64,000 bases of DNA from an uncultured Acidimicrobiaceae bacterium (GCA_913030665.1 CAJWFS010000003.1:101-64100); one strand, 5' to 3'; counted from the stretch's first letter, positions 1,098-40,689 are shown. Notes: a model not told the origin generated them from the sequence alone. Program-made: numbers and translations.

Positions 1098-1149
1098 GTG
1101 TGCGCGGATCGTACAAGACTCCGAACGGTCCGATCCCGACTATGTAGGC

Positions 1150-4509: not shown

Positions 4510-4540
4510 ATCATCGATCTAGACTTATAGTGACGACTGA
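4497..4540. repeat. 13-nt perfect direct repeat TAGTGACGACTGA (4497-4509 and 4528-4540); the first copy contains the last codons and the stop of putA
   Basis: Read directly from the sequence. The copies are separated by 18 nt of AT-rich sequence (atcatcgatctagactta). Confidence 0.85.
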
Positions 4541-4626
4541 TATAGTTGTTAATGTACAGAAGAACGAATGATACGCTTGCACACCAGTTGTCGATGGGTC
4601 AGACTGACGCGGTGATACGACCCCCG
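4510..4626 (+). promoter_or_regulatory. AT-rich intergenic region, candidate promoter for the C45/GNAT pair
   Basis: My hand count of line 4501-4560 is 22/60 G+C in an otherwise ~70% GC context. Two TATAGT (-10-like) hexamers sit at 4526-4531 and 4541-4546. Confidence 0.4.
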
Positions 4627-5703: not shown

Positions 5704-5707
5704 GCCG

Positions 5708-6328: not shown

Positions 6329-6352
6329 GCGGGGGGCTGAACGGCGGCCGGT

Positions 6353-7947: not shown

Positions 7948-7974
7948 CTAGGTCCTCCCTCTGGGCTCTGGGCC

Positions 7975-9294
7975 CTACATCTCCCGGCCGGACCGCATCC
8001 GCAGTCGGCGGGCGTACAGGTTCACGCCCCAGCCGAGGAGCGGGTCGGGGAGGTTCCGGTTGGGCCGTCCCGTGGCCAGCATCCCGTCCAGCAGGTCCGA
8101 GCCCTCGCCGCAGACCATCTCGGCTATGAGCTTTCCGCAGATCGCCCCACGGCTCAGCCCCGTGCCGTTGTGGACCAGCGCACCGTGGATGCCGTCGGCG
8201 AGGCGTCCGAAGACCGGTTCGCCGTTGCGGGCCATGGACAGCGCACCGCCCCACGAGTAGTCGAACGGCACGTGCGCCAGGCCGGGGAACCGACGCTCGA
8301 AGGCCACCCGGTGGGCTCCGGCGGCCCGACGCCGGAAGCGGCCACCGGCCATCGAGTGACGGCTGTAGCTGTAGACGTTGCGGATCAGGATCCGGCCGTC
8401 GACCAGGCGTCGCACCGTGGTGCCGGACGGTGCCGCCGGGATCACACCCCAGGTCAGGTCGCCACCTATTGAAGCCGACTCCTCGTCGGTGAGCGGTCGC
8501 GTCATGGACCCCCAGGTCACGACCGGAATGAGGTGGTGGGCGTAGAAGCCAAAGCCGACGGCGAAGCCGTTGTTAGCCAGCACGAGCTCCGGGGTGCGGA
8601 TGGTTCCACCGTCGGTGTGCAGCTCGTGGGGTGGGCCCTCGTCCAGCCACGTCACCGGAGTTTCCTCGTGGACGGTCACGTTGGCCGGCAGGGATGCGGC
8701 CAGGCCCCTGCAGAGTGCAGCCGGCTGCAGCAGCACCGTCCCGGGGGTGTGGAGAGCCCGGTGGTAGTAGTCGATGCCCAGCCGCGCCACGGTGGCGTCG
8801 CTGTCCAGCAGTTCGTAGTCCTCGTCGATGAGGTCGAGCGTGGCAGCGAAGTGGTCCAGGTCCCGTGCCCCGCGGTTGGTGCACGCGGCGTGGATCTTTC
8901 CGGCCCAGGTCCAGTCGCAGTCGATGCCGTGGGCCGTCACCGCCTCGGCGAGGTAGGCCTGTCCGGCCCTGTTCAGGGCGATCTGCTGCCTCTCGTATGT
9001 GGCCGAGTCGGCGAAGCCCTCGGAGCGGATGTTGTGGGCGTGGTCGATGGCGAAGCCGGACGACCGCCCGGCGGCGCTGTTTCCGATCCGGCCCGCTTCA
9101 ACGAGGAGGATCCGGGCATCCGGACGTAGTTCGGCCAGCCTGCGAGCGGCCGCCAGCCCTGTGAACCCGGCGCCCACGACGACCACGTCGGCTTCCGTCG
9201 GACCGGAGAGCGGTGCGGCCGGCGGCACCTCGGCCAGGGTCTCGAACCAACCGTTGTTCCTGTCGTACCTGGGCAGGAGCGTGACGGCACCCAT
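7975..9294 (-). CDS. FAD-dependent oxidoreductase, DAO family (amine / D-amino-acid type oxidase or dehydrogenase)
   Basis: 'DVVVVGAGFTGLAAARRLAE' is a Rossmann GxGxxG motif. The ~440-aa size and general look match PuuB, D-hydroxyproline dehydrogenase and sarcosine-oxidase-beta-like enzymes. Confidence 0.85.
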   Translation of the reverse strand: MGAVTLLPRYDRNNGWFETLAEVPPAAPLSGPTEADVVVVGAGFTGLAAARRLAELRPDARILLVEAGRIGNSAAGRSSGFAIDHAHNIRSEGFADSATYERQQIALNRAGQAYLAEAVTAHGIDCDWTWAGKIHAACTNRGARDLDHFAATLDLIDEDYELLDSDATVARLGIDYYHRALHTPGTVLLQPAALCRGLAASLPANVTVHEETPVTWLDEGPPHELHTDGGTIRTPELVLANNGFAVGFGFYAHHLIPVVTWGSMTRPLTDEESASIGGDLTWGVIPAAPSGTTVRRLVDGRILIRNVYSYSRHSMAGGRFRRRAAGAHRVAFERRFPGLAHVPFDYSWGGALSMARNGEPVFGRLADGIHGALVHNGTGLSRGAICGKLIAEMVCGEGSDLLDGMLATGRPNRNLPDPLLGWGVNLYARRLRMRSGREM

Positions 9295-9327
9295 CGTGGC
9301 CTCCCCCGTCCGATCAGCGGTCCGCCA

Positions 9328-10824
9328 TCAGGAAAGGTCCATCCAGATGGTCTTCAACTCGGTGTACTGCTCGTGGGCCGCGATCGACTTGTCCCGGCCA
9401 CCGAAGCCCGACTGCTTGAACCCACCGAAGGGCGTGGTGATGTCGCCCTCGCCGTAGCAGTTCACGGCGACCGTTCCGGCCCGGATGGCCCGTGACGCCA
9501 GGTGGGCGGTGCGAAGGTCGGTGGTGTGGATGGTGGCGGCCAGCCCGTAGTCGGTGTCGTTGGCAAGACGGATGGCCTCCTCGGGCGTGTCGAAGGTGGT
9601 CACAGCCAGGACCGGTCCGAAGACCTCCTCGCGGGCCAGGCGGCTGGAGGGATCCACATTCGTGAAGACGGTGGGCTCCACGAACCACCCACCGCTCTCC
9701 ACGCGCACCCGGTTGCCCCCGATGGCACACGTCGAGCCGGCTGCGTGCGCGTCCGCTATGTGGCCCAGCACCTTGTCCATGTGGGCCTCCTCGATCATGG
9801 CCCCCACGGTCGTCTCGGGCACCAGGGGGTCGCCCACCACCCAGTCGCGGCTGCGTTCGGCGATGCGCTCCATGAGCTCGTCGAGGACCGAGTGCTGGAC
9901 GATGAGCCGTGAGTTGGCGCTGCAGTTCTGGCCTCCGTTCCAGAAGATCCCCTCGCAGATTCCTGTCGCCGCGGCATCCAGGTCGTCGGCGTCGGCCATG
10001 ACTATGACCGGGCTCTTGCCGCCGCACTCCAGCAGTACCTCCTTGAGGTTGGAGTCGGCCGAGTAGCGGAGGAAGTGGCGGCCTACCTCGGTGGATCCGG
10101 TGAAGGCGACGCAGTCCACGTCCGGGTGCAGTCCGATCGCTGCGCCGGCCGTTTCGCCGAACCCCGGGACCACGTTCAAGACGCCGTCCGGGATCCCGGC
10201 CTCGACGGCCAGCTCGGCCACCCGGATGGTCGACATGGAGGTCTGCTCTGCCGGCTTCACCACGCACGTGTTGCCGGCCGCCAGGATCGGGCCGATCTTC
10301 CAGCCGGCCATCATCAGCGGGTAGTTCCAGGGCAGCACGGCGCCGACCACGCCGACTGGCTCGCGGACCACCATCCCGACCTTGCCGGGGCCCGACGGCG
10401 AGAGCTGGTCGTAGAGCTTGTCGCACGCCTCGGCGTGCCAGCGCAGGGTCATCACCAGGTCGGGGACGTCGATCCCCGAGCAGTCGCTGATCGGCTTGCC
10501 CGCCTCCAGCGTCTCGATGATGGCGAGCTCGTCGGTGTGGGCCTCCACCAGGCTGGCGAACCGCAGCAGCAGCAGCTTGCGGTCAGCGGGCGCCATGCGA
10601 CCCCAGGGCCCCTCCTCGAAGGCGGCCCGTGCCGCGGCGACGGCACGGTCCACGTCCGTGGCATCGCACTCGGAGACCTGGGCCAGCTCGCGACCGGTGG
10701 CCGGATCCAGGGTGGCAAAGGTCCGTCCGCTGGCCGACTCCACGCTGCGGCCCCCGATGAGGGCCCGCGTCGGAGGCTGCACGGATGCCGCCAGGGCTGT
10801 CGGATCTGCAAGGTCGGTGGTCAT
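9328..10824 (-). CDS. NAD(P)+-dependent aldehyde dehydrogenase
   Basis: 'VLPWNYPL', 'VVKPAEQT', 'ECGGKSP', 'GQNCSANSR', 'EEVFGPVL'. The start was moved to ATG 10824 ('MTTDLADP'), which overlaps the stop of the upstream gene (ATGA). Confidence 0.92.
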   Translation of the reverse strand: MTTDLADPTALAASVQPPTRALIGGRSVESASGRTFATLDPATGRELAQVSECDATDVDRAVAAARAAFEEGPWGRMAPADRKLLLLRFASLVEAHTDELAIIETLEAGKPISDCSGIDVPDLVMTLRWHAEACDKLYDQLSPSGPGKVGMVVREPVGVVGAVLPWNYPLMMAGWKIGPILAAGNTCVVKPAEQTSMSTIRVAELAVEAGIPDGVLNVVPGFGETAGAAIGLHPDVDCVAFTGSTEVGRHFLRYSADSNLKEVLLECGGKSPVIVMADADDLDAAATGICEGIFWNGGQNCSANSRLIVQHSVLDELMERIAERSRDWVVGDPLVPETTVGAMIEEAHMDKVLGHIADAHAAGSTCAIGGNRVRVESGGWFVEPTVFTNVDPSSRLAREEVFGPVLAVTTFDTPEEAIRLANDTDYGLAATIHTTDLRTAHLASRAIRAGTVAVNCYGEGDITTPFGGFKQSGFGGRDKSIAAHEQYTELKTIWMDLS

Positions 10825-11852
10825 CGGGTGCTCCTCGTCGGGATCGTCCTGCCCACTCCCGCCCGGTCGGTCATGCGTACCAGCCAGTCGCGTTCGTCGT
10901 CCCATTCCCGGAACACCAGGCGGTCACGGTCCACCCGGTTCGTCGGCAGCGTGGAGAGGGCGGCGGTCAGCGATACGCGGCCCCGGCGGGTCATGGGCAT
11001 CACCGGCCGACGGCACGGGCCTACCGGCCGACCGACCATGTTGGTGGCCGTCTTGACCGCCACGTTGTACTCGGCGTCCACGGCGTTGTCCCAGAAGAAC
11101 AGGTTGGCTGGCAGCATCCGATTCCAGAGCTCGAGTGCCTCGAGGTTGCGACCGGCGATGATGTGGTCGTAGAGGGCCACGCACTCGTGCGGCATGACGT
11201 TGGCGGCGCCCCAGATCCAGCCTGCCGAGCCGGCCATGAGGGCGTACGGGGCCAGTGGGTCGGCTCCGGACAGCACGTGACCGCCGATGCCCAGCAACTG
11301 CTGGATGCGTATCAGGTCACCTGTGGAGTCCTTGATGTAGTCGATGTTCTCCATGGCTATGAGCTTCCGGTACAGGTCCGGGGTGATGTCGAAGCCGGAC
11401 TGTGCAGGGATGTTGTAGAGGACGATGGGGGCGTCGATGGCCCGGGCCAACTTCTCGTAGTGGTACATGACCCCGCGTTCGAACGGTCCCTCGAAGTACG
11501 GAGGGAGGACCATCACGGCGCTGGCTCCCAGGCCGATCGCAGCCCGGGAGTTCTCTATGGCGTCCACGGTGGTTATCGCCGACGTCTGACAGATGACCGG
11601 GATGCGGCCTGCCACCTGTTCGATGCCGACCTCGAAGGCGCGGCGCTTCTCGTCGGTCGAGAGGAAGGCGAACTCGCCGGTGCCGGCGGCCAGCACCAGG
11701 CCGTGGATGCCTGCGTCGACGAGGCTCTCGACGTGGTCGCGCAGTCGCCCCTCGTCGAGCGACTCGCCGGAGTCGTCGAACGGGCTGCACATGGCGGCGC
11801 AGACGCCGTGGAGCAGTGGCGGTTCCGGGGCGGTGCCGTTGGTGGTGGTCAT
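10821..11852 (-). CDS. DHDPS/N-acetylneuraminate-lyase family (class I aldolase fold) enzyme
   Basis: 'GLVLAAGTGEFAFLSTDEKRR', 'VMVLPPYF', 'LYNIP', and 'IKDSTGD' (Schiff-base Lys context). Confidence 0.88.
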   Translation of the reverse strand: MTTTNGTAPEPPLLHGVCAAMCSPFDDSGESLDEGRLRDHVESLVDAGIHGLVLAAGTGEFAFLSTDEKRRAFEVGIEQVAGRIPVICQTSAITTVDAIENSRAAIGLGASAVMVLPPYFEGPFERGVMYHYEKLARAIDAPIVLYNIPAQSGFDITPDLYRKLIAMENIDYIKDSTGDLIRIQQLLGIGGHVLSGADPLAPYALMAGSAGWIWGAANVMPHECVALYDHIIAGRNLEALELWNRMLPANLFFWDNAVDAEYNVAVKTATNMVGRPVGPCRRPVMPMTRRGRVSLTAALSTLPTNRVDRDRLVFREWDDERDWLVRMTDRAGVGRTIPTRSTR

Positions 11853-11890
11853 GTCGGATTCCTCGGGATTCTGGGTGGGCTGTCGCCGTC

Positions 11891-13438
11891 TCAGGTGACC
11901 AGGTCCGGCAACTCGGCATCACGACGAGCCACGTAGTCGTCGAGTTCTTCGCGGACGTGGTCGTCCAGTGCCGGTTCCTCGTACTCGTCGAGCATCTGGC
12001 GGCACCTGGCAGCTGCCCTCTCCTCGGCGCTCTGCGACCCGTCGGCCAACCACTGTTCGTAGTTGTCGCTGTTCATCATCTCGGGCATCGAGAAGGCGGT
12101 CTGGAAGTTGGCCAGCGTGTGCTCCGTGCCGAGGTGGTGGCCGCCCGCCGGCACCGAGCGCATCGAGTCCAGCACCTCGTCCAGGTCGTCGAACGAGACC
12201 CCGCTGCCCAACTGGTACATGAGCTCCAACTGCTCGCTGTCCAGGACCCACTTGGCGTAGCTCTGGCACATGGCGCTCTCCAGGTAGCCGGTGGTGGAGA
12301 GGACGAAGTTCGTGCCCGCCATGAGCACGCCGTACATGTTGCGGGCCGCCTCGTAGCCGGCCTGGGCGTCGACCATCTTGGAGCTCGTGCACGAGCCGCT
12401 GCAACGCGACGGAAGGTTGTAGTGGCGGGCCATCTGTGCGGTGAGCAGGTTCATGTGGCAGATCTCAGGCGTGCCGGCCTGGGGAGCGCCGGTACGCATC
12501 GAAACGGTGGACAGCCACTGGCCGTAGAGGGCAGGGGCGCCCGTACGGACCAGCTGCGAGAAGGCCACGCCGGTGAGGGCCTCGATGTTGACCTGGATGA
12601 CCGCCCCGACCGTGGAGGCCGGCGTGGAGGCGCCACCCAGCACGAACGGGCTGAAGAGCGTGGCCTGGTTGGCGGCTGCGAAGACCCGGACGCTGTCCAG
12701 CATGGTCTTGTCCCAGACCAGGGGGGTGTTGGCGTTGGCCAGGCAGGTCATGACGGTCGTCTCGCGTACGAAGTCTTGGCCGAACACGATTCCCGCCATG
12801 TGCAGGCTGTCCTCGGCTCGGTCCATGGAGGTGACCGCTCCCATGAACGGCTTGGACGAGTACTTCAGGAGGCTCTCCGTCATGTAGAGGTGCCGCTTTG
12901 GGACCGGTACGTCCATCGGCTCGCAGACCACCCCGCCCGACATGTGAAGTGCCGGCGACAGGTGGTTCAGCTTCGTGAAGTCACGGAAGTCCTGAAGGGT
13001 GGCTGGGCGACGGACGCCGTCAAGGTCCAGCACGTACGGGGCGCCGTAGGAGGGGGTGAAGATGGTCCTGCCATCGCCGACAGTGACCGTGTGGGCCGGG
13101 TCGCGGGCCACCATCGTGTACGAGGAGGGAGCGGTGCCGACGAGAGACATCAGGTGCTCGCGGTCGATGCGCACGGTGACACCGTCAATGTCGGCCCCGG
13201 CCGCACGCCACATGCCGATGGCGTCGTCGCACCTGAACTCGACGCCCACCTCCTCGATGATGTCCATGGAGGCGTCATGGATCCTCTGGACCTGCTCGTC
13301 GTCGAGCAGGTCCACCCAGGGGATCCTGCGCTCCAGCTCGGGAAGCCACCGCTGGACCCTGGTACGGCGCTTCGCTGCCCGGGCATCGCGACCCCGGCGG
13401 ACTCCTCGCTGTGGCCGGACCGTGCTCGTGTCGGTCAT
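11891..13438 (-). CDS. MttB (trimethylamine methyltransferase) superfamily protein, non-pyrrolysine type
   Basis: 515 aa from ATG 13438 ('MTDTSTVRPQRG'). It has an Arg-rich N-terminus and the segments 'FMGAVTSMDRAEDSLHMAGIVFG', 'SPFVLGGASTPAS' and 'MRTGAPQAGTPE'. There is no in-frame TAG. The 848-aa track ORF is an upstream shadow extension. Confidence 0.85.
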   Translation of the reverse strand: MTDTSTVRPQRGVRRGRDARAAKRRTRVQRWLPELERRIPWVDLLDDEQVQRIHDASMDIIEEVGVEFRCDDAIGMWRAAGADIDGVTVRIDREHLMSLVGTAPSSYTMVARDPAHTVTVGDGRTIFTPSYGAPYVLDLDGVRRPATLQDFRDFTKLNHLSPALHMSGGVVCEPMDVPVPKRHLYMTESLLKYSSKPFMGAVTSMDRAEDSLHMAGIVFGQDFVRETTVMTCLANANTPLVWDKTMLDSVRVFAAANQATLFSPFVLGGASTPASTVGAVIQVNIEALTGVAFSQLVRTGAPALYGQWLSTVSMRTGAPQAGTPEICHMNLLTAQMARHYNLPSRCSGSCTSSKMVDAQAGYEAARNMYGVLMAGTNFVLSTTGYLESAMCQSYAKWVLDSEQLELMYQLGSGVSFDDLDEVLDSMRSVPAGGHHLGTEHTLANFQTAFSMPEMMNSDNYEQWLADGSQSAEERAAARCRQMLDEYEEPALDDHVREELDDYVARRDAELPDLVT

Positions 13439-18076: not shown

Positions 18077-18165
18077 GGATGCGTCCTAGTGCTGGGCGGC
18101 GCCCTCTCGGGGCGGGTTCGGGCCGAATCTAGGCGCGCTCGCCACGGGCCTCCCCAGCGGGCAGA

Positions 18166-18708
18166 ATGCGCGCCATGCACGTCGCGGACGAGGTCCTCGG
18201 TTTGTTCGCGGCACATGGTGGGAACACCTATGCGGAGCAGGTTTCCATGGAGCAGCACGCCCTGCAGGCTGCGGCCCTGGCCCGGGCCTCCGGTGCGTCG
18301 GACGCTCTCGTGCTAGCCGCCCTGCTCCACGACGTCGGGCACTTCCTGGCCCAGCCCGACTCGGAGTTCGGCGTGACGGACCACGGCACGACGGGAGGAG
18401 CGTGGCTGGCCGAACGGTTCGAGCCGGCGGTCAGCGAGCCGGTCCGGCTGCACGTGGCGGCCAAGCGGTTCCGGTGCTTCGTGGACCCTGCCTACGAGGA
18501 GCAGCTCAGCTCGGCATCCGTCGGGACGCTGCGCCTCCAGGGTGGTGCCATGTCGGCCGCCGAGGCCCGGGAGTTCGAGGCCGAGCCGTTCGCACAGGAC
18601 GCCCTGGCCCTCCGGTCGTTCGACGATGGCGGCAAGGTCGCCGGCCTGGAAATACCGGCGCTCGACGAATGGCGCCCGCTGCTGGACTCGCCGGGGTTCC
18701 GCCTGTGA
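18166..18708 (+). CDS. stand-alone HD-domain protein, putative PhnZ/TmpB-like di-iron oxygenase
   Basis: 'SMEQHALQAAALA..(24 aa)..LLHDVGH...DH...RLHVAAKRF'. The H / HD / H / H ligand spacing resembles phosphonate-associated HD oxygenases. Assignment as a CDS is secure; the function is an inference. Confidence 0.6.
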   Translation: MRAMHVADEVLGLFAAHGGNTYAEQVSMEQHALQAAALARASGASDALVLAALLHDVGHFLAQPDSEFGVTDHGTTGGAWLAERFEPAVSEPVRLHVAAKRFRCFVDPAYEEQLSSASVGTLRLQGGAMSAAEAREFEAEPFAQDALALRSFDDGGKVAGLEIPALDEWRPLLDSPGFRL

Positions 18709-19829
18709 CGGGCCTTCATGTCTCGGCGGTGGAGGCCGAGGTGCTCACTTTGGAACTGGCTGGCGGCCCGGCCAGGTTCCACGCCATCTGGTTGCGTGAC
18801 AACGCCCGCGACGACGCTTCGCGGGACGTGGCCAACGACCAGCGCCTGTTCGACGTGTCGGAGCTTCCGGAAGAGGTGGTGATCGCTGCCGCCGAGGTGG
18901 TGGACGGCAATCTGCGGGTGGAGTTCGGCCCGGATGGGGTGGTCAGCATCTTCGAGGTCGACTGGCTGGAGGCACACCGCTACGACGGCGTGGAGCGCCG
19001 CTCGTCGGGCGCTGTGCCCTGGCTGGCGTCTGGTCTGGACCCGTACCGGCTGGCGTGGTCACGACGCGACGACCCGTCAGCAAGGTCGGCCACGACGGCC
19101 GCCCTCGTGCGCGACGGCCTGGCGATCGTCCACGGCCTGGCACGAGGTTCCGATCCGACGGGTCCCTCAATCGGTGACGTCGCCGGGATCTGGGGGCCGA
19201 TCAGAGAGACCAACTACGGCGAGGTGTTCCACGTTCGGGCCGAGGCCGATCCGGTGAACCTGGCGTTCACGCCGCGGGCGCTGAACGTGCACACCGACAA
19301 CCCATACCGCCGCCCGGTGCCCGGGTTCCAGCTCCTCCACTGCCTCGTGGCCAGCGAGGCCGGAGGTGTGACCATGCTGGTCGACGGCTTCAGCGCCGCA
19401 GAGGCGTTGCGTGACGAGGACCCCGTTGCCTTCGACCTGCTGGCCGGCCATCGGGTCCCCTTCCGGTGGCGGGGCGACGGGTTCGACCTGCGGAACCGTT
19501 CGGCCGTCATCGGGGTGGACGACCGTGGGGTGGTGCTGGCGGTCAACTACAACAACCGGTCGGCGGCGCCGTTCGATACGCCGTTCGAGGAGATGTCCGG
19601 CTTCTACGAGGCGTACCGGTCCTTCGCCAGGCTCCTGCACCGCTCCGAGATGGAGTACCGGTTCACGCTCTCGCCGGGCGAGTGCCTGGTGTTCGACAAC
19701 GAACGGGTCCTCCACGGCCGGGAGGGGGAGTCCGACCCGGAGCGCTACCTGCAGGGCTGCTACCTTGACCGGGACTGGGTACACGGCAGCATCGGGCCAC
19801 CTGCCGAGGCACCCGGGGCTGGGATCTAA
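18705..19829 (+). CDS. Fe(II)/2-oxoglutarate dioxygenase, gamma-butyrobetaine-hydroxylase-like (DUF971 N-domain + TauD fold); putative PhnY*/TmpA-like
   Basis: 'FHAIWLRDNA' is a BBOX-type N-domain without Cys ligands. 'NVHTDNPY' is an HxD motif, and 'LVFDNERVLHGR' also fits. The GTG start at 18705 overlaps the HD gene stop (GTGA). The track ORF start at 18402 is a shadow extension. Confidence 0.7.
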   Translation: MTGLHVSAVEAEVLTLELAGGPARFHAIWLRDNARDDASRDVANDQRLFDVSELPEEVVIAAAEVVDGNLRVEFGPDGVVSIFEVDWLEAHRYDGVERRSSGAVPWLASGLDPYRLAWSRRDDPSARSATTAALVRDGLAIVHGLARGSDPTGPSIGDVAGIWGPIRETNYGEVFHVRAEADPVNLAFTPRALNVHTDNPYRRPVPGFQLLHCLVASEAGGVTMLVDGFSAAEALRDEDPVAFDLLAGHRVPFRWRGDGFDLRNRSAVIGVDDRGVVLAVNYNNRSAAPFDTPFEEMSGFYEAYRSFARLLHRSEMEYRFTLSPGECLVFDNERVLHGREGESDPERYLQGCYLDRDWVHGSIGPPAEAPGAGI

Positions 19830-19873
19830 CCCCTTGGGGCACGGGTCTGGGACCCGGCGAAAGGCAGCACGCC

Positions 19874-20854
19874 ATGATGGATATAGAGGGCCTGGTCCGC
19901 CATGACGTGGATGCACGGGGTACCCGGATCCACGTGGCCGAGGTGGGTGAGGGCCCGATGGTGCTCTTCGTACACGGCTTCCCCGAGTCGTGGTACTCGT
20001 GGCGTCACCAGCTTCCGGCGGTGGCGGCGGCCGGCTACCGGGCCGTGGCCATCGACGTGCGGGGCTACGGGTCCTCGGAGCGCCCCACCGAGGTGGACGC
20101 CTACCGCCTAGTTGACCTGGTCGGGGACTGCGTGGGGGTGGTCGAGGCTCTTGGCGACGAGGGAGCAGTGATCGTGGGCCACGACTGGGGGTCGCCGATC
20201 GCCAGCACGGCGGCGCTGTTGCGCCCCGAGGTGTTCCGGGCGGTCGCCCTCCTGAGCGTCGCCTACACCCCGCCCAACGAGTTCCGACCGACCGACGTCT
20301 TCCGGATGATGGGCGGCGACGACACGTTCTACTTGGAGTACTTCCAGGAACCCGGCGTGGCCGAAGCCGAGATCGGCACCGATCCGGCCCGGTGGCTGGA
20401 GGGAATGATCTTCAGCGCATCGGGGGACGCACCACCGCCGCTCCCGGGCGAACCGACCGGCTTCGCCGTTTCAGAGGGTGGTCGTTTGGACGACAACTTT
20501 CGCTACCCGACGGGTCCGCTGGCATGGCAGGGCGCCGACGACCTCGCCTTCTATGTCGGAGAGTTCGCCAGGGCCGGGTTCTCGGGCGGCCTGAACCGGT
20601 ACCGCTGCGTGGACCACGACTGGGTAGACCTGCGGGCCTGGCGTGGGGCGCCGATCCACCAGCCCTCGCTCTACATCGGCGGGGAGAAGGACGGTCCCAC
20701 CATCTGGGGCGCCGGCAGCATCGCCCGCTACCCCGAGACCCTGCCGGGCCTGCACGACTCGGTGGTCCTACCGGGCGTCGGCCACTGGATGCAGCAGGAG
20801 GACGCTGCGGGGGTCAACGCCCTCCTCCGGGACTTCCTGGACGCCTGCTCCTGA
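19874..20854 (+). CDS. alpha/beta hydrolase, epoxide-hydrolase / haloalkane-dehalogenase-like
   Basis: 'FVHGFPESWYSWRHQ' and 'VGHDWGS' (nucleophile Asp context), with a C-terminal 'GVGHWMQQE'. Confidence 0.85.
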   Translation: MMDIEGLVRHDVDARGTRIHVAEVGEGPMVLFVHGFPESWYSWRHQLPAVAAAGYRAVAIDVRGYGSSERPTEVDAYRLVDLVGDCVGVVEALGDEGAVIVGHDWGSPIASTAALLRPEVFRAVALLSVAYTPPNEFRPTDVFRMMGGDDTFYLEYFQEPGVAEAEIGTDPARWLEGMIFSASGDAPPPLPGEPTGFAVSEGGRLDDNFRYPTGPLAWQGADDLAFYVGEFARAGFSGGLNRYRCVDHDWVDLRAWRGAPIHQPSLYIGGEKDGPTIWGAGSIARYPETLPGLHDSVVLPGVGHWMQQEDAAGVNALLRDFLDACS

Positions 20855-20935: not shown

Positions 20936-23017
20936 ATGGGAAAGGGCGACCATGGCCGGCTGACCCGCTCGCTGGGGCTCCGCCACGTCTTCGCCCTCTC
21001 GACAGGGGCGATGCTTTCCTCGGGCCTGTTCCTGCTGCCTGGCATCGCCGCGGCGAAGGCCGGACCGGCGGCCGTACTGGCCTACCTGCTGGCGGGCCTG
21101 ATGGCCGTGCCGGCAATGCTCAGCGTGTCCGAGCTGGCCACGGCACTACCCAAGGCCGGCGGCGCGTACTACTTCCTGGAGCGGGCGCTGGGACCGGCGG
21201 TGGGAACCGTTGCCGGGTTCGGGACCTGGCTGTCGCTGGTGCTCAAGGACGCCTTCGCCATGGTCGGCATGAGCGCCTACCTGGTGCTGGTCCTGGACGT
21301 GAACGCCACGGTCCTCGCCCTGGTGCTCATAGCAATGTTCACCCTGGTGAACGTGGTGGGATCCAAGGCCAGCGCCTCCATGCAGCTCGCCCTGGTGGTG
21401 GTGGTGCTGGGTGCCATGGCCTGGTTCATTGTCGAGGGGTTGGCGGAGACGGCCTCGCGCGGCTTCGACGGCTCGAACCTGGACCCCTTCTTCACCACGG
21501 GGGTATCCGGGATCACCGCCGTGGTCGGTCTGGTGTTCGTGTCGTTTGGTGGCCTCACCAAGGTGGCCAGTGCCGCCGAGGAGGTGGAGGACCCCTCGCA
21601 GCGCATCCCGTTGGGTATGGCCCTCTCGCTGGCCACCGCCACGGTGGTCTACACCCTCGGCGTCCTGGTGACCATCGCCCTGGTGCCGCCCGACGTACTG
21701 CACGGCGACCTGGCTCCCATACACACCGCAGCACAGGCGGTCCTGCCGAAGATCGGCGTGTGGCTGGTCGTGGTGGCGGCACTGGCTGCCTTCTCCTCGG
21801 CGGTGAACGCGGGGATCCTGGCCGCTGCCCGGTACCCGATGGCCATGGCCCGCGACGGCCTCCTGCCTGCCCGCATGGGGGCCCTCAGTCGGTTCGGCAC
21901 CCCGGTCGTCGGTGTCGTCATGACGGGATCGGCTATTGCCCTGGTCGTCGTGGCATTTGACATCGAGTCCATCGCCAAGATGGCCAGCGCCTTCGTGCTC
22001 CTGACGCTGGGCCTGGTGAACCTGGCCGTGCTGGTGCTGCGGGCATCGGAGATCCGGTCGTACGCACCGGCGTTCCGGTCGCCCCTGTACCCGTTCACCC
22101 AGCTGGTCGGCATGGCCATCTCGGCATACCTGATCGTGCGCCTCGGGGTTTCCGCCCTCGTCTTCGTGGCCATCGTGTCCGCTCTGGGCTGGGCGTGGCA
22201 CCACCTCTACGCCACCCCGCGGACCGATCGGGCCGGGGCCATACGCCACGTGTTCCGCCGCTGGGGTCGGGGAGCCGACGAGGCCCTGGAGCGGGAGATC
22301 AGTGCTGCGATGGCCGGGCACGGGCTGCGCTCCGTCGACGACTATCCGGGGCTTATCGCCCGGGCCGTGGTCCTCTCGGTGCCGGCTGGCACGGACATCA
22401 CGGAGGCGGCGTCCCGTGCGGCGGCGGTGCTGTCGGACCGCATCGGCGTGTCGACCGAGCGGGTCACCGAGCGGTTCCTGGAGACGGGGTCGCTCTGGAT
22501 CCAGTCGTCGGACGACCACCCCACGGCCACGCCAGTGGCCCTCTTCGACGCCATCCAGACCGACCAACTGGTGATCGTGCGGGCCGCGGCGGGAATCCGG
22601 ATACCAGCCGCCTGGGGCGGGTCAGGCGAGCTGGTGAACGCCCTGTTCTTCCTGGCTGGCACGTCGTCAGACCCGGGTCGGTCCCTGCGCCTTGCCGGCG
22701 AGTTGGCCGGGTTCCTCCACTCCGGCGCCCGCGCCTGCGGCCTGGCCACCACCGAGGCCGAGGTGAAGTCGTCGCTCCTACCCGGCTGGGCCGTCCGTCA
22801 GTACGCACTGCTGCCCGAGGGGCGTGACGCCGGCCTCATCGGTCGGCGGGTGGGTGGCCTGCCCCTTCCCGACGGGGTGGAGGTGGCTGCGGTGACCCGG
22901 TTCGGGGTTCCCCTGCTCGTCGAAGACAGCCTGGTGCTGGAACCTGATGACCAGCTCACCATCGTCGGCCCGGAGGGCGTCATGCCGACTCCCGGAGATC
23001 CCGCCCCGGTCGTCTGA
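20936..23017 (+). CDS. APC-superfamily amino-acid/polyamine permease fused to a ~260-aa cytoplasmic tail ending in a TrkA-C (RCK_C)-like domain
   Basis: 'LSTGAMLSSGLFLLPG' and 'SELATALPKAGGAYYF' are typical APC N-terminal motifs. The tail 'LIGRRVGGLPLPDGVEVAAVTRFGVPLLVEDSLVLEPDDQLTIVGPEG' looks like TrkA-C. Confidence 0.85.
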   Translation: MGKGDHGRLTRSLGLRHVFALSTGAMLSSGLFLLPGIAAAKAGPAAVLAYLLAGLMAVPAMLSVSELATALPKAGGAYYFLERALGPAVGTVAGFGTWLSLVLKDAFAMVGMSAYLVLVLDVNATVLALVLIAMFTLVNVVGSKASASMQLALVVVVLGAMAWFIVEGLAETASRGFDGSNLDPFFTTGVSGITAVVGLVFVSFGGLTKVASAAEEVEDPSQRIPLGMALSLATATVVYTLGVLVTIALVPPDVLHGDLAPIHTAAQAVLPKIGVWLVVVAALAAFSSAVNAGILAAARYPMAMARDGLLPARMGALSRFGTPVVGVVMTGSAIALVVVAFDIESIAKMASAFVLLTLGLVNLAVLVLRASEIRSYAPAFRSPLYPFTQLVGMAISAYLIVRLGVSALVFVAIVSALGWAWHHLYATPRTDRAGAIRHVFRRWGRGADEALEREISAAMAGHGLRSVDDYPGLIARAVVLSVPAGTDITEAASRAAAVLSDRIGVSTERVTERFLETGSLWIQSSDDHPTATPVALFDAIQTDQLVIVRAAAGIRIPAAWGGSGELVNALFFLAGTSSDPGRSLRLAGELAGFLHSGARACGLATTEAEVKSSLLPGWAVRQYALLPEGRDAGLIGRRVGGLPLPDGVEVAAVTRFGVPLLVEDSLVLEPDDQLTIVGPEGVMPTPGDPAPVV

Positions 23018-23032: not shown

Positions 23033-23959
23033 TCAGGCGATGAGGAGGCGTCGGATCTCGGCTGCTCCGGCCACGCGTTCGGCATTGGTGGCGGCGATGG
23101 GGGCGAGGTTGAAGTCGACGGCGCCGGCCTCCACGAACGGGCGGAGCCAGTCGGCGATCTCGGCCGGGGTCCCGACAGGGGAGTACCTCTCGAAGGCCGA
23201 ATACGGAGCGCCGTAGAACTTCTCCATGGCCGGGCCCAGGAGTGCGGCGCCCTCTGCGGGGTCGTCGCCCAGCCCGACCCACACCTGGTAGCCGTGCCGC
23301 CAGGACACGCCGCTTCGTCCGGCTTCGGCGGCGGTCGCCTCTGCGAGGGACACGCCGAGAGCAAAGCGGCCGGGGGAGCACCACGAGGCCAGCCAGCCGT
23401 CGCCTCGTCGGCCGGCCCGTTCCACGGCGGCGTCGGACCGCCCGCCCACGATGATCGGGACCGGTGGCGATGGGGCAGGTAGCACTGACACGTCCGGGGC
23501 CTCGTAGAAGTCGCCATGGTGGTCGATGGTCTCGCCGGCCAGGAGCGGCCGTAGGACGTCCAGCGCCTCGTCGGTGCGGCGCCCGCGGGTGGCCGGATCC
23601 ACCCCGACCACCTCCATCTCGTGGCGGTCCTCGCCGCCCACGCCCACCCCGAAGGTGAGGCGGCCGGGCGCCTGCTCGGCGAGCGTGGAGACCTGTCGGG
23701 CCACGGCGACCGGGTGGCGCAGCGCCAGCAGGTAGACGCCGACGTAGACGCCTATCGTGGGATGGAGGCCTGCCAGCCACGACACGGTCATGAGGCCGTC
23801 CCGTCCCCGTCCACCGTGGAAGGCGACGTGGTCGGCGGTGATCAGGTGGTCCAGGCCGGCCTCGGCCGCTGAATGTACGTAGTCGACCGCCTCCTCGTGC
23901 GTAGCGAATCCCGCTGGCGGGATCGACAACCCGACCCTGATACGGGCCGGCGGCGGCAT
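23033..23959 (-). CDS. luciferase-like monooxygenase (LLM) family, F420-dependent-oxidoreductase-like
   Basis: 'RVGLSIPP', 'GLDHLITADHV', 'QVSTLAEQAPGRLTFGVGVGG', 'RGRRTDEALDVLRPLLAGE'. The start was moved to ATG 23959. Confidence 0.85.
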   Translation of the reverse strand: MPPPARIRVGLSIPPAGFATHEEAVDYVHSAAEAGLDHLITADHVAFHGGRGRDGLMTVSWLAGLHPTIGVYVGVYLLALRHPVAVARQVSTLAEQAPGRLTFGVGVGGEDRHEMEVVGVDPATRGRRTDEALDVLRPLLAGETIDHHGDFYEAPDVSVLPAPSPPVPIIVGGRSDAAVERAGRRGDGWLASWCSPGRFALGVSLAEATAAEAGRSGVSWRHGYQVWVGLGDDPAEGAALLGPAMEKFYGAPYSAFERYSPVGTPAEIADWLRPFVEAGAVDFNLAPIAATNAERVAGAAEIRRLLIA

Positions 23960-23961
23960 GG

Positions 23962-24648
23962 TCAAGGCGTGCGCTTCTCCCCGAAGGCGTCCCAGGAGGT
24001 GATCCTCTCGGGGCCGCGGTAACGGGGGGCCACCCCCCACTTCCCGGTCGGGTGCCCGAGCGGGAGCAGCGCCAGCACCTCGTAGCGCCCGGGGATGCCG
24101 AGCAGCGATCGCACGTCGTCTTCGTAGATGCGGTGCAGGGTGGTCATCGCCGTTCCGAGGCCCAACGAGCGGGCGGCCAGCATGAAGTTCTGGATGGCCG
24201 GGTACACCGAGGCGTGGGTGGGCCCTACGGGCATCGGCCCCTCCTCGTCGTGGACGGTCATGTCGATGGTCGGCATGAGCAGTAGGACGATCACGGGAAC
24301 GTGCTCGAGGTTCTGGGCCAGGTGCACGGTGGCCCGGTTGTTGCGCTCCCAGGCGTCGCGTGCCGAGTCGTTGGGGAACTCGGCAGGGGCGATGGCCGGC
24401 TCGTAGCGCGCCCAGCCACGACGGTAGATCCCGGCCAGACCGGTGCGCAGTTCAGGGTCCTGCACGACCACAAACTGGTACGGCTGGATGTTCCCGCCGC
24501 TGGGTGCCTGGACGGCCGCCTGCAGGCAGGTCCAGATGTCCTCGTCGGCCACGGGTTCGTCGCTGTAGCGACGCATGGCCCGGTTGGTCATCAGGCCGTC
24601 CAGTAACCCGATCTGGTTTCCGCGGGCCTGTCCTGTCTCGAATGTCAT
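23962..24648 (-). CDS. nitroreductase-family protein
   Basis: 'TNRAMRRYSDEPVADEDIWTCLQAAVQAPSGGNIQPYQFVVVQD'. The start was moved to ATG 24648 ('MTFETGQ'). Confidence 0.85.
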   Translation of the reverse strand: MTFETGQARGNQIGLLDGLMTNRAMRRYSDEPVADEDIWTCLQAAVQAPSGGNIQPYQFVVVQDPELRTGLAGIYRRGWARYEPAIAPAEFPNDSARDAWERNNRATVHLAQNLEHVPVIVLLLMPTIDMTVHDEEGPMPVGPTHASVYPAIQNFMLAARSLGLGTAMTTLHRIYEDDVRSLLGIPGRYEVLALLPLGHPTGKWGVAPRYRGPERITSWDAFGEKRTP

Positions 24649-24662
24649 CGGTGGGGTCCTCT

Positions 24663-25454
24663 CTACTTCCCGGTGAATCGGGGTTCGCGCTTCTCGGCCA
24701 GAGCCGAGAGTGCTTCGGTGAAGTCCTCGGAACTGAAGGTCACGGTCTCCAGGGCGGTCGACAGGTCGAAGGCCGGGCCACAGGTCTGCTTGATCCAGGC
24801 GTTCACCGCCTGCTTCGTGAACTGGACCGCCTGGGGCGCTCCGGCGGCCAGGCGCTTCGCCCATGCCAGGCCGGCGGCGACGCAGGCCACGGGGTCGGGC
24901 GCCGATTCCACGATTAGGCCCATCCGGACGGCTTCGGTGGCCGTCACCGGGTCTCCGGTCAGCAGGAACCGCTTGGCCAGTTGCGGCCCGAGGGCCAGCG
25001 GCCAGGCGATGGTGCCGCCGTCGCCGGCCACGATGCCGACCCGCACATGGGGGTCGCCGAGTCGGGCCGTCTCGGACATGACCGTGATGTCGGACAGCAG
25101 CGCGATGCTGGCCCCCAGCCCCATGGCGTGGCCGGTCACCGCGCAGACCAGCGGGAGGTGCAGGTCCAGCAGGTCCCACACGATGGCCCTGCCGTCCAAG
25201 CGGATGTCGGTGGCGTAGCCGGGCTTCGAGAACTCCGGAAACCAGCCGAAGTCGCCGCCGGCGGTGAAGGCGCGATCGGTGCCGGCCAGCAGGACGGCCC
25301 GGGCCTGGCGTTCGTTGCGTAGGTGCTTGAAGAGGTGCGTGAGCTCGTGGTGCATCTGCTCGTCGACCTTGTTGAGGTGGTCGTCGGGCTTGTCGATGGT
25401 CACCACCAGCACGTCACCGTCCCGGTCGAGGTGGAGGTACTCGAAGTCGGTCAT
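24663..25454 (-). CDS. enoyl-CoA hydratase/isomerase (crotonase) family
   Basis: 'VLVVTIDKPDD..LNKVDEQM', 'AVLLAGTDRAFTAGGDF', 'LVCAVTGHAMGLGASIALLSD'. The start was moved to ATG 25454. Confidence 0.88.
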   Translation of the reverse strand: MTDFEYLHLDRDGDVLVVTIDKPDDHLNKVDEQMHHELTHLFKHLRNERQARAVLLAGTDRAFTAGGDFGWFPEFSKPGYATDIRLDGRAIVWDLLDLHLPLVCAVTGHAMGLGASIALLSDITVMSETARLGDPHVRVGIVAGDGGTIAWPLALGPQLAKRFLLTGDPVTATEAVRMGLIVESAPDPVACVAAGLAWAKRLAAGAPQAVQFTKQAVNAWIKQTCGPAFDLSTALETVTFSSEDFTEALSALAEKREPRFTGK

Positions 25455-25491
25455 GGTCGCTCCCGTGGTCGTTTGTATGTCGGTTGGTGGG

Positions 25492-26616
25492 TCAGGAGGC
25501 GGGCCTGGGTTCCCGGGGAAGCCCCAGGAGCCGCTCGCCGATGATGTTGCGTTGCACCTCGCTGGTGCCACCGCCGATGGTCAGGGCCCGTGAGAAGTAG
25601 TGGCCCCAGGCCCACTGGTCATCATGCTCCTCGTACGGGTAGTGCCCGTCCAGCATGGTGGACGGGCCCTCGAGGTCCTTCACCAGCGACATGGCCTTCT
25701 GGCCGTGCACGTCACCCATGGCCTTGCGGACCGACGACAACGGGCCCGGATCGGCGCCGGCCACCCTGGCGCTCATGATGCGCTGGTTGAGGAGCCTCAG
25801 GATCACCATCTCGGTGTAGAGGTCTGAGATGCGCTGGCGGAGCACCGGGTCGTCGCAACCGAATGACCGGATCCGGTCCAGCACCGCCTCGTCGTCGGGC
25901 CCCCGTCCCCAGAGCACGCCGCCCTCCGAGAGCGAGACCCGTTCGTTGGCCAGGGTCACCTTGGCGAGGCGCCAGCCCTCGTTCTCCGCCCCGACGAGGT
26001 GCTCGGCGGGGATGCGTACGTCGGTCAGGAACGTCTCGTTGAAGTGGCGGCCGCCGGTCATCTCGATGATCGGGCGGACCTCGATGCCCGGGGTGGCCAT
26101 GTCCAAGAGAAAGTAGGAGATGCCCCTCTGTGGCGGGCCGTCGTCCGAGGTGCGTGCCAGGAGGATTCCCCAGTCGGTCACGTCGGCCCGCGTCGACCAG
26201 AGCTTCGAGCCGTTCACCACGTAGCAGTCGCCGTCGCGCACGGCACGGGTCCGGAGCGAGGCCAGGTCCGACCCGGCCTCCGGCTCGCTGAAGAGCTGGC
26301 ACCAGTCCTCGGTGTCGTCGAGCATAGGGGGGAGGAATCGCTGCTTCTGGGCCTCGGTCCCGCCGGCGAGGATCGTGGGTCCGGCCCATCCCACGCCGAT
26401 GGACGCTCCGGGGATCCTCACGTCGGCGGCCCTGAACTCGTCCTCGATGATGAGCTGTGCCTCGGCGTCGGCGTCGCGGCCCCACGGGCTGGGCCAGTGG
26501 GGGGCTATGAAGCCACCTTCGGCGAGGTCTCTGCGCGACGGCGACGGGTTGGAGGCCAGCCAGGAACGGACCTCGAGGCGACGGGGGTCATCGTCGGCGG
26601 GTAGGGCGAAGTCCAT
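25492..26616 (-). CDS. acyl-CoA dehydrogenase
   Basis: 'FSEPEAGSDLASL', 'YVVNGSKLWST', 'IGGGTSEVQRNIIGERLLGLP'. Confidence 0.9.
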   Translation of the reverse strand: MDFALPADDDPRRLEVRSWLASNPSPSRRDLAEGGFIAPHWPSPWGRDADAEAQLIIEDEFRAADVRIPGASIGVGWAGPTILAGGTEAQKQRFLPPMLDDTEDWCQLFSEPEAGSDLASLRTRAVRDGDCYVVNGSKLWSTRADVTDWGILLARTSDDGPPQRGISYFLLDMATPGIEVRPIIEMTGGRHFNETFLTDVRIPAEHLVGAENEGWRLAKVTLANERVSLSEGGVLWGRGPDDEAVLDRIRSFGCDDPVLRQRISDLYTEMVILRLLNQRIMSARVAGADPGPLSSVRKAMGDVHGQKAMSLVKDLEGPSTMLDGHYPYEEHDDQWAWGHYFSRALTIGGGTSEVQRNIIGERLLGLPREPRPAS

Positions 26617-26626
26617 CGGCCCTACC

Positions 26627-27778
26627 TCACAGGAGGGTGGTGTCGGTGTCCAGGCCGAACCTGAGCCGGCCTGTCAACTCGTGGATCCGGGGGGCGACCA
26701 TGGCATGCGTGGCCGCCACCTGGCCATCGCGCACCATTCGCTGCAGTGGCTCCCTGAGGTAGACGGCAGCGCCACCGGCCTCGCGCTGCAGGTTGGTCAG
26801 GGCGTCGGCGCAGCGCTGGGCGGAGTCGCATGCGGCCAGCCGCAGGCTCCGCCGGTGCTCGATGGTGAGTGGGTCGCCGGCTTCCGCCGTGGTCCAGGCC
26901 TCACCGATCACGTCGTGGAGGAACGATCGGGTGGAGCGGGCGGTCGCCTCCGCGTTCGAAACGGTTGCCTGCCCCGTCGATCGTTCCGAGAGGGTCCGAC
27001 CCGAACCCTCGGGCTTCTTCGAGGTGGCCAGCTCGGCGAACCTGTCGACGGCTCCATCCAGCAGGCCGATGGATACGGCGGCTATGCCCATGGCCAGCAT
27101 CCCGTAGAAGGGGAAGCGCCACTGGGGTCCGTCGAGTCGGGGGGTGGCGGTCATGAGTTGCGTCCACCGACCCTCGGGGACGAAGGCGTCGGCGACCCTG
27201 TAGTCGGCCGAGCCGCTGCCGGAGAGTCCCGTCACATGCCAGGTGTCGAGGTGCTCGACGTCGGTCCGGTCGAAGAACACGAACGGGGCGTAGAGGCCGT
27301 CGTGGCGTCGCAGCGGTGAACCTTCGGCATCGACGATGCGTGCGCCGCCGCCGATCCAGGTGCAGTGCTGTGTTCCCGATCCCCAGGCCCAGGTTCCGGT
27401 GACCTGCAGGCCGCCGTCGACGATGCGGGCCGTGCCGACGGGGGCGGCGTAGCCGCCGGTGCAGGAGTCGGCCGGGCCATAGATCTCTCGGGCATGAGGT
27501 TCGTCCAGGAATCCGGCCAGCAGCGACGTGGTGCCGGCAATCATGACGCACCAGCCTGCGCCTCCGTCGTGGCGGGACACCTCAGCGATCACGTCGATGG
27601 CGGTCGCCACGTCGGCCTCGGGGCCTCCGAGGCTGGTCGGCGTGAACATCCGGAAGAGGCCTGCCTCGGTGAGGTCGGTGACGACGTCGTCGGGGAGCGT
27701 ACGGGTGGCCTCGATCTGCTCGGATCGGCCGGCGAGGGATGGCCCGAGTCCACGGGCCTGCTGGAGGAGGTCGACCAT
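26627..27778 (-). CDS. acyl-CoA-dehydrogenase-fold protein (ACAD or flavin-dependent monooxygenase type)
   Basis: 'GLFRMFTPTSLGGPE', 'HDGGAGWCVMIAGT', 'VTGTWAWGSG'. There is no clear C-terminal catalytic Glu motif. Confidence 0.8.
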   Translation of the reverse strand: MVDLLQQARGLGPSLAGRSEQIEATRTLPDDVVTDLTEAGLFRMFTPTSLGGPEADVATAIDVIAEVSRHDGGAGWCVMIAGTTSLLAGFLDEPHAREIYGPADSCTGGYAAPVGTARIVDGGLQVTGTWAWGSGTQHCTWIGGGARIVDAEGSPLRRHDGLYAPFVFFDRTDVEHLDTWHVTGLSGSGSADYRVADAFVPEGRWTQLMTATPRLDGPQWRFPFYGMLAMGIAAVSIGLLDGAVDRFAELATSKKPEGSGRTLSERSTGQATVSNAEATARSTRSFLHDVIGEAWTTAEAGDPLTIEHRRSLRLAACDSAQRCADALTNLQREAGGAAVYLREPLQRMVRDGQVAATHAMVAPRIHELTGRLRFGLDTDTTLL

Positions 27779-35017: not shown

Positions 35018-35094
35018 CCGGTAACGGGGATCCTCGGAGGCGTCGACCGGCGGTCCATCCGGTTGGGGGTGCACGGCTGAGAACCTAGGGCCCG

Positions 35095-40665: not shown

Positions 40666-40689
40666 GACCGTCCTCCCTTCCGGGCCGTT

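Follow-up and report, generated by a model that had tools for sequence, protein, structure and literature searches.

A reversed-order TmpA/TmpB-like gene pair in marine Acidimicrobiia: a predicted module for oxidative C–P bond cleavage

What do two overlapping genes, one for an HD-domain protein and one for an Fe(II)/2-oxoglutarate (2OG) dioxygenase, accomplish together in a marine actinobacterial genome? The pair occupies positions 18166-19829 of a 64,000-nucleotide stretch of DNA from an uncultured Acidimicrobiaceae bacterium (GCA_913030665.1 CAJWFS010000003.1:101-64100); the whole of that stretch is called the window here (G+C 68%). An earlier note on this DNA had proposed that the two proteins form an oxidative C–P bond cleavage module of either the PhnZ/PhnY* or the TmpB/TmpA type, acting on a substrate not yet described. 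The module is supported by our analysis and is narrowed to the TmpB/TmpA type. Judging from sequences and modelled folds, we estimate a probability of about three in four that the pair is a TmpAB-type module whose most likely substrate is 2-(trimethylammonio)ethylphosphonate (TMAEP) or a very close quaternary analogue.

The two genes and their products

The first gene (18166-18708, + strand) encodes a TmpB/PhnZ-like HD-domain protein of 180 amino acids, predicted to be a mixed-valent di-iron oxygenase that cleaves the C–P bond of a 1-hydroxylated phosphonate. The second (18705-19829, + strand) begins with GTG and encodes a TmpA-like dioxygenase of 374 amino acids with the gamma-butyrobetaine dioxygenase (BBOX) fold, a predicted phosphonate C1 hydroxylase. 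Stop and start codons overlap in a GTGA at 18705-18708 (+ strand), which reads as a probable translational coupling from the HD gene to the dioxygenase gene. The same 4-nucleotide overlap is called in five related loci (L007, L008, L011, L012 and L013), and in other members of the Acidimicrobiia clade described below an in-frame HD-2OG fusion takes its place. Both open reading frames (ORFs) are real genes, since exact copies recur on many independent metagenome contigs: the identical HD protein is present on 49 contigs and the dioxygenase on 13, with 277 members in its 90%-identity cluster and Tara Oceans among the sources. The G+C content at third codon positions is 0.87 for both ORFs and matches the flanks, so there is no sign of a recent horizontal transfer of the pair.

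The HD protein carries a complete set of di-iron ligands. The residues listed in the earlier note are all where it placed them: H31 in MEQHALQ, H55-D56 in LLHDVGH, H73 in TDHG and H96 in RLHVAAKRF. The sixth ligand is D153 (RSFDDGGK). By alignment, H31/H55/D56/H73/H96/D153 correspond to H34/H58/D59/H80/H104/D161 of PhnZ and to H40/H64/D65/H86/H109/D166 of TmpB, and the set reproduces the six-ligand H...HD...H...H...D motif defined for MIOX, PhnZ and TmpB (PMC8177086). The 24 residues from H31 to H55, which the note had likened to PhnZ and TmpB, equal the H34-H58 and H40-H64 spacings of these enzymes. Conservation was followed across three sets of sequences: the clade (91), a soil alphaproteobacterial group (45) and proteobacterial homologues of TmpB (69). 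The six ligands, like H59, K100, S118, T121, Q125 and R150, vary little or not at all. The latter six are equivalent to H62, K108, S126, T129, Q133 and R158 of PhnZ; it is their conservation that was examined here.

Fold searches place the HD protein with the same two enzymes. A PDB sequence search returned TmpB (6npa, E=1e-30) and PhnZ (5e-23) and no others. The AlphaFold2 (AF2) model, with a predicted local distance difference test score (pLDDT) of 94, has ten significant PDB matches, all to PhnZ or TmpB, at template-modelling (TM) scores of 0.81-0.86; the next structural match has E=0.25, and nucleotide, (p)ppGpp and cyclic-dinucleotide HD hydrolases all lie at E>0.2. A grouping with nucleotide or (p)ppGpp hydrolases, which the note had named as contrary to its proposal, is thus not what the model gives, as it matches PhnZ and TmpB exclusively.

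The dioxygenase resembles TmpA more closely than any other protein of solved structure. Pfam recognises a TauD core (1e-39) and a sub-threshold GBBH-like_N domain (18 vs 22.8 bits). Among the NCBIfam models TmpA ranks first with 357.5 bits, ahead of gamma-butyrobetaine dioxygenase with 281.7 bits, which stays below its own cut-off (TIGR02409, 414.75). In a phmmer search of PDB sequences, residues 13-362 align onto residues 19-373 of TmpA (6NPB, 279.5 bits, E=3.5e-82); human BBOX reaches 136.7 bits (E=9e-39), about half of the TmpA score. Foldseek, run with an AF2 model whose pLDDT is only 69, likewise ranks TmpA (1.8e-31; top matches 6npb and 6npc) above BBOX (8.6e-24) and DfmD.

Substrate-binding residues were compared in an alignment of the window protein and 51 clade sequences with human BBOX and DfmD. 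The full-length TmpA/TmpB reference was a locus of Leisingera sp. D0M16 (L028), whose proteins are ~95% identical to the crystallised ones, in native numbering. The Fe triad H196/D198/H337 and the 2OG-binding R347 are invariant in the 51 clade sequences, as is the triad N185/N284/R285, which corresponds to N187/N287/R288 of TmpA. In TmpA these three residues hydrogen-bond the phosphonate of TMAEP, and R288 sets the enzyme apart from BBOX (PMC9296572). The R288 position is Ala in human BBOX, Pro in DfmD and Arg in all 51 clade members. An aromatic cage (Y171/F175/F188/Y353) is kept as well, position 188 being Phe in 45 sequences and Tyr in 6; Phe is also found there in 19 of the 71 proteobacterial homologues. 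The cage positions were carried over by alignment from human BBOX.

The remaining features named in the earlier note are present: the partner of 374 residues overlapping at GTGA, the FHAIWLRDNA segment (residues 25-34), the NVHTDNPY motif, which holds H196-x-D198, and the lack of Zn-binding cysteines. At the Cys3His Zn site of BBOX, NCPCSDCYLD of the human enzyme aligns with NARDDASRDV in the window and with NALDPETRSP in TmpA. The window protein thus shares with human BBOX1 the two-domain fold, the Fe/2OG site, the aromatic cage and equivalents of Asn191 and Asn293, whereas it lacks the N-domain Zn cysteine cluster, has Arg for Ala at the R288 position and has an HD oxygenase as its constant partner.

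Pairing, gene order and relatives

Database searches found the closest relatives in a group of Acidimicrobiia/Acidimicrobiales metagenome-assembled genomes (MAGs), where the dioxygenase is 53-94% and the HD protein 67-100% identical; among proteobacterial relatives identity falls to at most 51% (2OG) and 61% (HD). A scan of species-representative genomes gave 80 loci, all of which were searched by tblastn with the window proteins. Seventy of the 71 proteobacterial loci (hosts include Ruegeria, Leisingera, Aestuariispira and Paraburkholderia) hold both genes, always adjacent and in all 70 with the dioxygenase gene first, usually separated by ~60-110 nucleotides; the 71st (L088) ends after the dioxygenase. 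All Acidimicrobiia loci (MAGs of the ALOHA, ETNP, TOBG and UBA sets) have the opposite order, HD then 2OG, either with the 4-nucleotide overlap or as one fused polypeptide of 539-551 amino acids (P0033, P0037, P0038, P0040, P0041 and L018). The HD-first order, which the earlier note had listed as unusual, is therefore real and specific to the lineage. Within the wider family, HD oxygenase domains are fused to TauD domains in both orders, so HD-first order and fusion are recurrent rather than unique.

A fusion of this kind has been characterised in a fungus: PhoF of Fonsecaea multimorphosa is a 2OG/HD fusion that acts on 2-aminoethylphosphonate (AEP) and 3-aminopropylphosphonate (PMC10574752). 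Six clade members are likewise single HD-2OG polypeptides, whereas the window has two overlapping genes. The clade fusions show the two activities acting as a unit. From the translational coupling and the natural fusions it would seem that both are needed in fixed proportion, and the intermediate is possibly handed over directly between the two enzymes.

Trees were calculated by neighbour-joining with one eukaryotic (human) BBOX and DfmD as outgroups and without bacterial BBOX, PhnY* or PhnZ1 sequences. The Acidimicrobiia clade is monophyletic, with bootstrap values of 100% (2OG) and 98% (HD), and has a long stem (0.24). With human BBOX and DfmD taken as outgroups, the 2OG clade falls among the TmpA-like proteins and outside these two, and on such a placement the earlier note had made its proposal depend. 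The deep nodes are weak (47-68%).

The HD family extends far beyond these pairs. Family-wide matches, counted as 50%-identity clusters, number 146 at E<=1e-30 and 1846 at E<=1e-10, and the HD oxygenase domain is also fused to NPP-type phosphodiesterase, HAD, ADH and DUF5690 domains. P0262 and P0336 (also P0256, P0269, P0287 and P0297) carry the PhnZ/TmpB-like HD domain in such multi-domain proteins: some are tri-domain proteins of NPP-type phosphodiesterase, HD and TauD, others join HD with a HAD hydrolase, DUF5690 or Zn-alcohol dehydrogenase. These arrangements point to uncharacterised upstream steps, such as one that frees a phosphonate head group from its diester, and perhaps to further substrates.

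Predicted chemistry and the competing readings

TmpA/TmpB of Leisingera caerulea (PDB 6NPB-D and 6NPA) convert TMAEP via (R)-OH-TMAEP into glycine betaine and phosphate, and this two-step pathway provides the homology basis for the mechanism proposed here (PMC8177086, PMC10574752). Both systems consist of a BBOX-fold Fe/2OG hydroxylase without Zn cysteines and a six-ligand HD di-iron oxygenase, and the Fe triad, the 2OG arginine, the phosphonate Asn/Asn/Arg and the aromatic cage are common to them. By sequence, both window proteins match TmpA/TmpB best. By structure the dioxygenase does so too, and for the HD protein PhnZ and TmpB tie. The systems differ in host, Actinomycetota (marine Acidimicrobiia) vs Pseudomonadota, and in the LysR gene found upstream in Leisingera and not here.

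By this homology we infer the following course. The dioxygenase would bind a TMAEP-like zwitterion, the aromatic cage holding the ammonium and the Asn/Asn/Arg triad the phosphonate, and would hydroxylate C1. The HD protein would then bind the 1-hydroxyphosphonate at Fe1 of an Fe(II)/Fe(III) pair seated on H31/H55/D56/H73/H96/D153, and O2 would be activated at Fe2 once a tyrosine-bearing loop swings away. A four-electron oxidative C–P cleavage would yield glycine betaine and phosphate. A gating role at the O2 site, like that of Y30/E33 in TmpB, is probable for the loop with Tyr22 and Glu24.

Two other HD systems were compared. PhnY*/PhnZ (HF130 fosmid; PDB 4MLM/4MLN/4N6W) converts AEP into glycine and phosphate in two steps, and the window HD protein shares with PhnZ the fold (TM 0.85), the six ligands, the H-to-HD spacing and the six further residues given above, at 33-34% identity. 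The difference lies in the partner: the window dioxygenase is BBOX-type with a quaternary-ammonium cage, whereas PhnY* is a different 2OG oxygenase, shorter and with a primary amine as its substrate. GmPhnY*/PhnZ1 of Gimesia maris turns methylphosphonate into formate and phosphate; the HD protein scores 148 bits with the PhnZ1 model and 142 with TmpB, both far under the 300-bit cut-offs, and its partner in the window is TmpA-like.

Several observations weigh against the TmpAB assignment. Identity to the characterised proteins is modest, ~45% for the dioxygenase and 34-39% for the HD protein. The dioxygenase falls short of the TmpA equivalog cut-off (NF049936, 400 bits), and the HD protein falls well short of that for TmpB (NF049941), its profile scores favouring TmpB no more than PhnZ1. 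Of the positions conserved in at least 90% of proteobacterial sequences, 71 of 168 (2OG) and 31 of 78 (HD) differ in the clade. Nine 2OG changes are clade-specific and near-invariant (F165W, E178H, L193R, G194A, D205R, Y257W, A359L, G363W and S366G), and F165W, E178H, L193R, D205R, Y257W, A359L and G363W are near active-site motifs. The gating loop reads Y22-A-E24 (Y-x-E), one residue shorter than Y30-L-G-E33 of TmpB (the YxxE residues of PhnZ are Y24/E27). In the HD tree the clade weakly joins a soil alphaproteobacterial 'YGEG' group, not canonical TmpB. Lastly, no Pho-regulon gene was found among the window ORFs scanned, nor is any betaine-catabolic gene there demonstrably linked to the pair.

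The 400-bit TmpA cut-off is an operational threshold and no mechanistic feature; on the same model Leisingera TmpA scores 604. In Pacificispira sp. (L020) the dioxygenase exceeds it with 444 bits, and the adjacent HD protein (9089-9682 of that locus) reaches 204 against the TmpB cut-off of 300. The general Phn-HD model (TIGR03276, cut-off 214.6) gives the window protein 194 bits, and missing it says little because the near-authentic Leisingera TmpB scores 203.5 there. Since both of these HD proteins fail, the HD-side models appear too narrow for the family. As for the loop, Tyr22 and Glu24 are both invariant, the short form is clade-wide, with Y-S-E in relatives, and as Y-G-E it recurs in a large alphaproteobacterial group partnered with BBOX-type dioxygenases; in the soil group the order is 2OG-HD, with a 4-nucleotide overlap. 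The pair has each mechanistic feature of TmpAB that was examined; where it departs is in the NCBI equivalog thresholds and the literal YxxE spacing. It is best read as a divergent, reversed-order copy of TmpA/TmpB, a variant architecture (reversed or fused) that leaves the known chemistry as it stands.

The same divergence can be read as a sign that the two-step C–P chemistry serves another physiological aminophosphonate, TMAEP being accepted only incidentally, if at all. This could be AEP with one or two methyl groups, a quaternary phosphonate with a longer chain or other substituents, or a phosphonate bearing an additional acidic group. The long clade stem and the sub-threshold profile scores fit this reading, as do the clade-invariant changes near active-site motifs, among which E178H and D205R lose an acid and L193R gains a base, the new tryptophans at 163, 255 and 358, the shortened HD loops between H59 and H73 in the clade, and the Y-x-E loop. 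The family is moreover known to switch substrate, covering AEP, methylphosphonate, TMAEP and, in PhoF, 3-aminopropylphosphonate (PMC10574752). Against this, every residue known to touch TMAEP in TmpA is the same throughout the clade. Many of the differences also occur in sister-group proteins which the TmpA model accepts (L020) or which NCBI names TmpA (P0091), and the short loop is shared with alphaproteobacterial proteins that have the same type of partner. We regard another aminophosphonate as unlikely but not remote. Somewhat more doubtful is the fuller proposal that TmpAB in this clade has been adapted to a different quaternary or N-alkylated phosphonate, as the charge-reversing and Trp substitutions around the active-site motifs and the shortened gating loop might indicate, with the co-directional APC/TrkA_C permease as importer; if true, it would give the APC family its first aminophosphonate transporter and bring to light a marine phosphonate substrate not known before. 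The earlier note had argued for an undescribed N-alkylated substrate from the gene order, the neighbours and the missing importer. This idea is unsupported, since the unusual points offered are lineage features: the TMAEP-holding residues are invariant, HD-first order and fusion recur elsewhere in the family, and the flanks of the Leisingera tmpAB genes are likewise without a transporter among the six ORFs scanned.

Two further explanations leave phosphonates altogether. In one of them the pair would act on a carboxylate betaine, such as beta-alanine betaine or gamma-butyrobetaine, by C–C cleavage of an alpha-hydroxy acid, a reading that would tie in with the CoA-transferase, acyl-CoA dehydrogenase and enoyl-CoA hydratase genes nearby and with the public annotation of both proteins as gamma-butyrobetaine dioxygenase. 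A precedent exists in SmaO/SmaX of a ribosomally synthesised and post-translationally modified peptide (RiPP) aminomalonate pathway, where an Fe/2OG hydroxylase followed by an HD oxygenase cleaves the C–C bond beside a carboxylate (PMC12186529). SmaX differs, however, in being mono-iron without second-site ligands and in cleaving peptide-bound hydroxy-aspartate, whereas the window HD protein has the full set of six ligands and a small-molecule-type partner. The arginine that distinguishes TmpA from human BBOX is present in the entire clade, BBOX profiles and structures score well below TmpA, and the CoA-pathway genes lie on the opposite strand and match carnitine models weakly (CaiB 69 vs 413 bits, crotonobetainyl-CoA dehydrogenase 73 vs 540 bits). 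In addition, L. caerulea TmpA itself is said to have been inactive on gamma-butyrobetaine (Rajakovich and colleagues, in 2019). We thus consider a carboxylate substrate very improbable. The other explanation takes the HD protein for an ordinary metal-dependent phosphohydrolase and the dioxygenase for an unrelated TauD enzyme that is adjacent by chance. Pfam indeed reports, besides a weak MIOX match, only a generic HD domain at 24.6 bits, and the precomputed annotation of most clade members is without any domain. Fusions and fold search effectively refute it: no phosphohydrolase matches the HD model significantly, and the genes are adjacent in 70 of 70 two-gene proteobacterial loci, overlap by 4 nucleotides in the clade and are fused in several independent lineages.

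Should the TmpAB assignment hold, a trimethylated aminophosphonate could be mineralised to phosphate and glycine betaine by abundant pelagic Acidimicrobiia, represented by Microtrichales-type MAGs from Station ALOHA, ETNP, Tara and TOBG. The available marine phosphonate surveys describe such capacity mainly for Proteobacteria and do not mention the class Acidimicrobiia. NCBI and most JGI names for the clade proteins are gamma-butyrobetaine dioxygenase or TauD/TfdA family dioxygenase, although JGI already labels some clade HD proteins hydroxy-TMAEP dioxygenase (P0190). Owing to these public names and the sub-threshold scores, gene-centric surveys relying on NCBI/TIGR cut-offs would miss the clade. 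The natural HD-2OG fusions offer convenient single-polypeptide targets for assays.

The upstream region and the neighbouring genes

The divergent intergenic region upstream of the HD gene (18077-18165, + strand) holds two conserved motifs and is a candidate promoter or operator. In an alignment of 12 Acidimicrobiia loci, GAACCTA, ~45 nucleotides upstream of the HD start, and CCCCAGCGGGCA[GT][GA], which directly abuts the HD ATG, are each kept in 11-12 loci. They may serve as an operator, as a promoter of the leaderless type or as a signal for translation. A sigma-70 consensus scan gave no match in 18077-18165. A promoter and terminator consensus scan of 17.9-23.3 kb found nothing either and thereby neither favours nor opposes a four-gene operon.

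Downstream of the dioxygenase gene, after 45 nucleotides, follows a gene for a soluble EphB-type epoxide hydrolase with an alpha/beta fold (19874-20854, + strand; PDB 6UNW 372 bits, Mycobacterium tuberculosis EphB 247 bits). This enzyme is probably outside the module: it is of an ordinary EphB type, a toxin–antitoxin insertion separates it from the pair in most relatives, it is absent in L019, and its membership in the pathway is unsupported. A fosfomycin-type idea clashes with the ammonium cage of the dioxygenase. The insertion, a FitA-like/PIN pair between the dioxygenase and hydrolase genes of most Acidimicrobiia relatives, lies at 9209-9882 in L007, 9148-9791 in L011 and 9699-10351 in L009, and is absent from the window (19830-19873) and from L013.

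The next gene (20936-23017, + strand) encodes an APC-superfamily permease with a C-terminal TrkA_C domain (Pfam AA_permease and TrkA_C). Among solved structures GkApcT and cationic amino-acid transporters come nearest to it. Its gene accompanies the pair in all Acidimicrobiia loci and in none of the 71 proteobacterial ones. The permease is a possible substrate importer, to be seen as a candidate. In Leisingera (L028), a LysR regulator is divergent and upstream of tmpAB, and a ureidoglycolate-lyase-like gene (9701-10366) overlaps the tmpB stop by 4 nucleotides.

Divergently upstream of the pair lie genes for an acyl-CoA dehydrogenase and a metallo-beta-lactamase (MBL)-type alkyl sulfatase and, farther away, for a family-III CoA-transferase and an MttB-family protein. 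The neighbours listed in the earlier note thus hold for the epoxide hydrolase, the permease and MttB; its CaiB-family gene best matches succinate-glutarate CoA-transferase. Together with 23033-27778, the segment 14780-18076 is conserved with the pair in the lineage and appears as a CoA-dependent catabolic set: the alkyl sulfatase, the acyl-CoA dehydrogenase, a luciferase-like monooxygenase, a nitroreductase-family protein, an enoyl-CoA hydratase and two more acyl-CoA dehydrogenases. The acyl-CoA dehydrogenase of this set has weak matches to acryloyl-CoA reductase and 3-sulfinopropanoyl-CoA desulfinase.

A 17-kb block arrangement is kept across the Acidimicrobiia loci, and in the proteobacterial loci no flanking gene accompanies the pair. 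The flanking genes are mostly ~77-90% identical, vs 63-76% for the pair; the epoxide hydrolase is comparably divergent in some loci. Conserved synteny was rejected as functional evidence, as the block is conserved in one lineage and its flanks are mostly more conserved than the pair. We treat the linkage of pair and flanks as inherited synteny, since the block belongs to a single lineage, the flanks are absent from proteobacterial loci, and the toxin–antitoxin, hydrolase and MttB genes are variable.

The earlier note had observed that the window contains no C–P lyase, phosphonatase or phosphonate importer, and this stands for the ~50 ORFs scanned. The one ABC importer, at 36.7-40.7 kb, is of the PotABCD type, and its PhnT/U/V scores stay under the cut-offs. 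It belongs to a polyamine-type cluster (33635-47832) with two FAD oxidoreductases of the DAO family, two class-III aminotransferases, an MFS transporter and an agmatinase, in which the phosphonate-specific models PhnT2, PhnU, PhnV and PbfA all stay below cut-off. One of the oxidoreductases weakly matches TIGR03329, 'aminophosphonate oxidoreductase' (201 bits vs a cut-off of 633).

The note had also suggested that a betaine product feeds the MttB-family enzyme. This link did not survive: MttB is encoded on the opposite strand in a hydroxyproline-type block, it is missing beside fused variants (L009 and L010), and a corrinoid protein was not seen in any scanned ORF. The block on the - strand comprises a short-chain dehydrogenase/reductase (7156-7947), DAO (7975-9327), an aldehyde dehydrogenase (9328-10905), a dihydrodipicolinate synthase (DHDPS)-family protein (10821-11852) and the MttB-family protein (11891-~13400). 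The last is a non-pyrrolysine methyltransferase, co-directional with these hydroxyproline-catabolism-type genes (DAO-like, DHDPS-family putative deaminase and aldehyde dehydrogenase). Closer to the start of the window are an AraC/PAS regulator (339-1139, - strand) and PutA (853-4509, + strand). The whole of 339-13400 looks like a set for demethylation and catabolism of (hydroxy)proline betaine.

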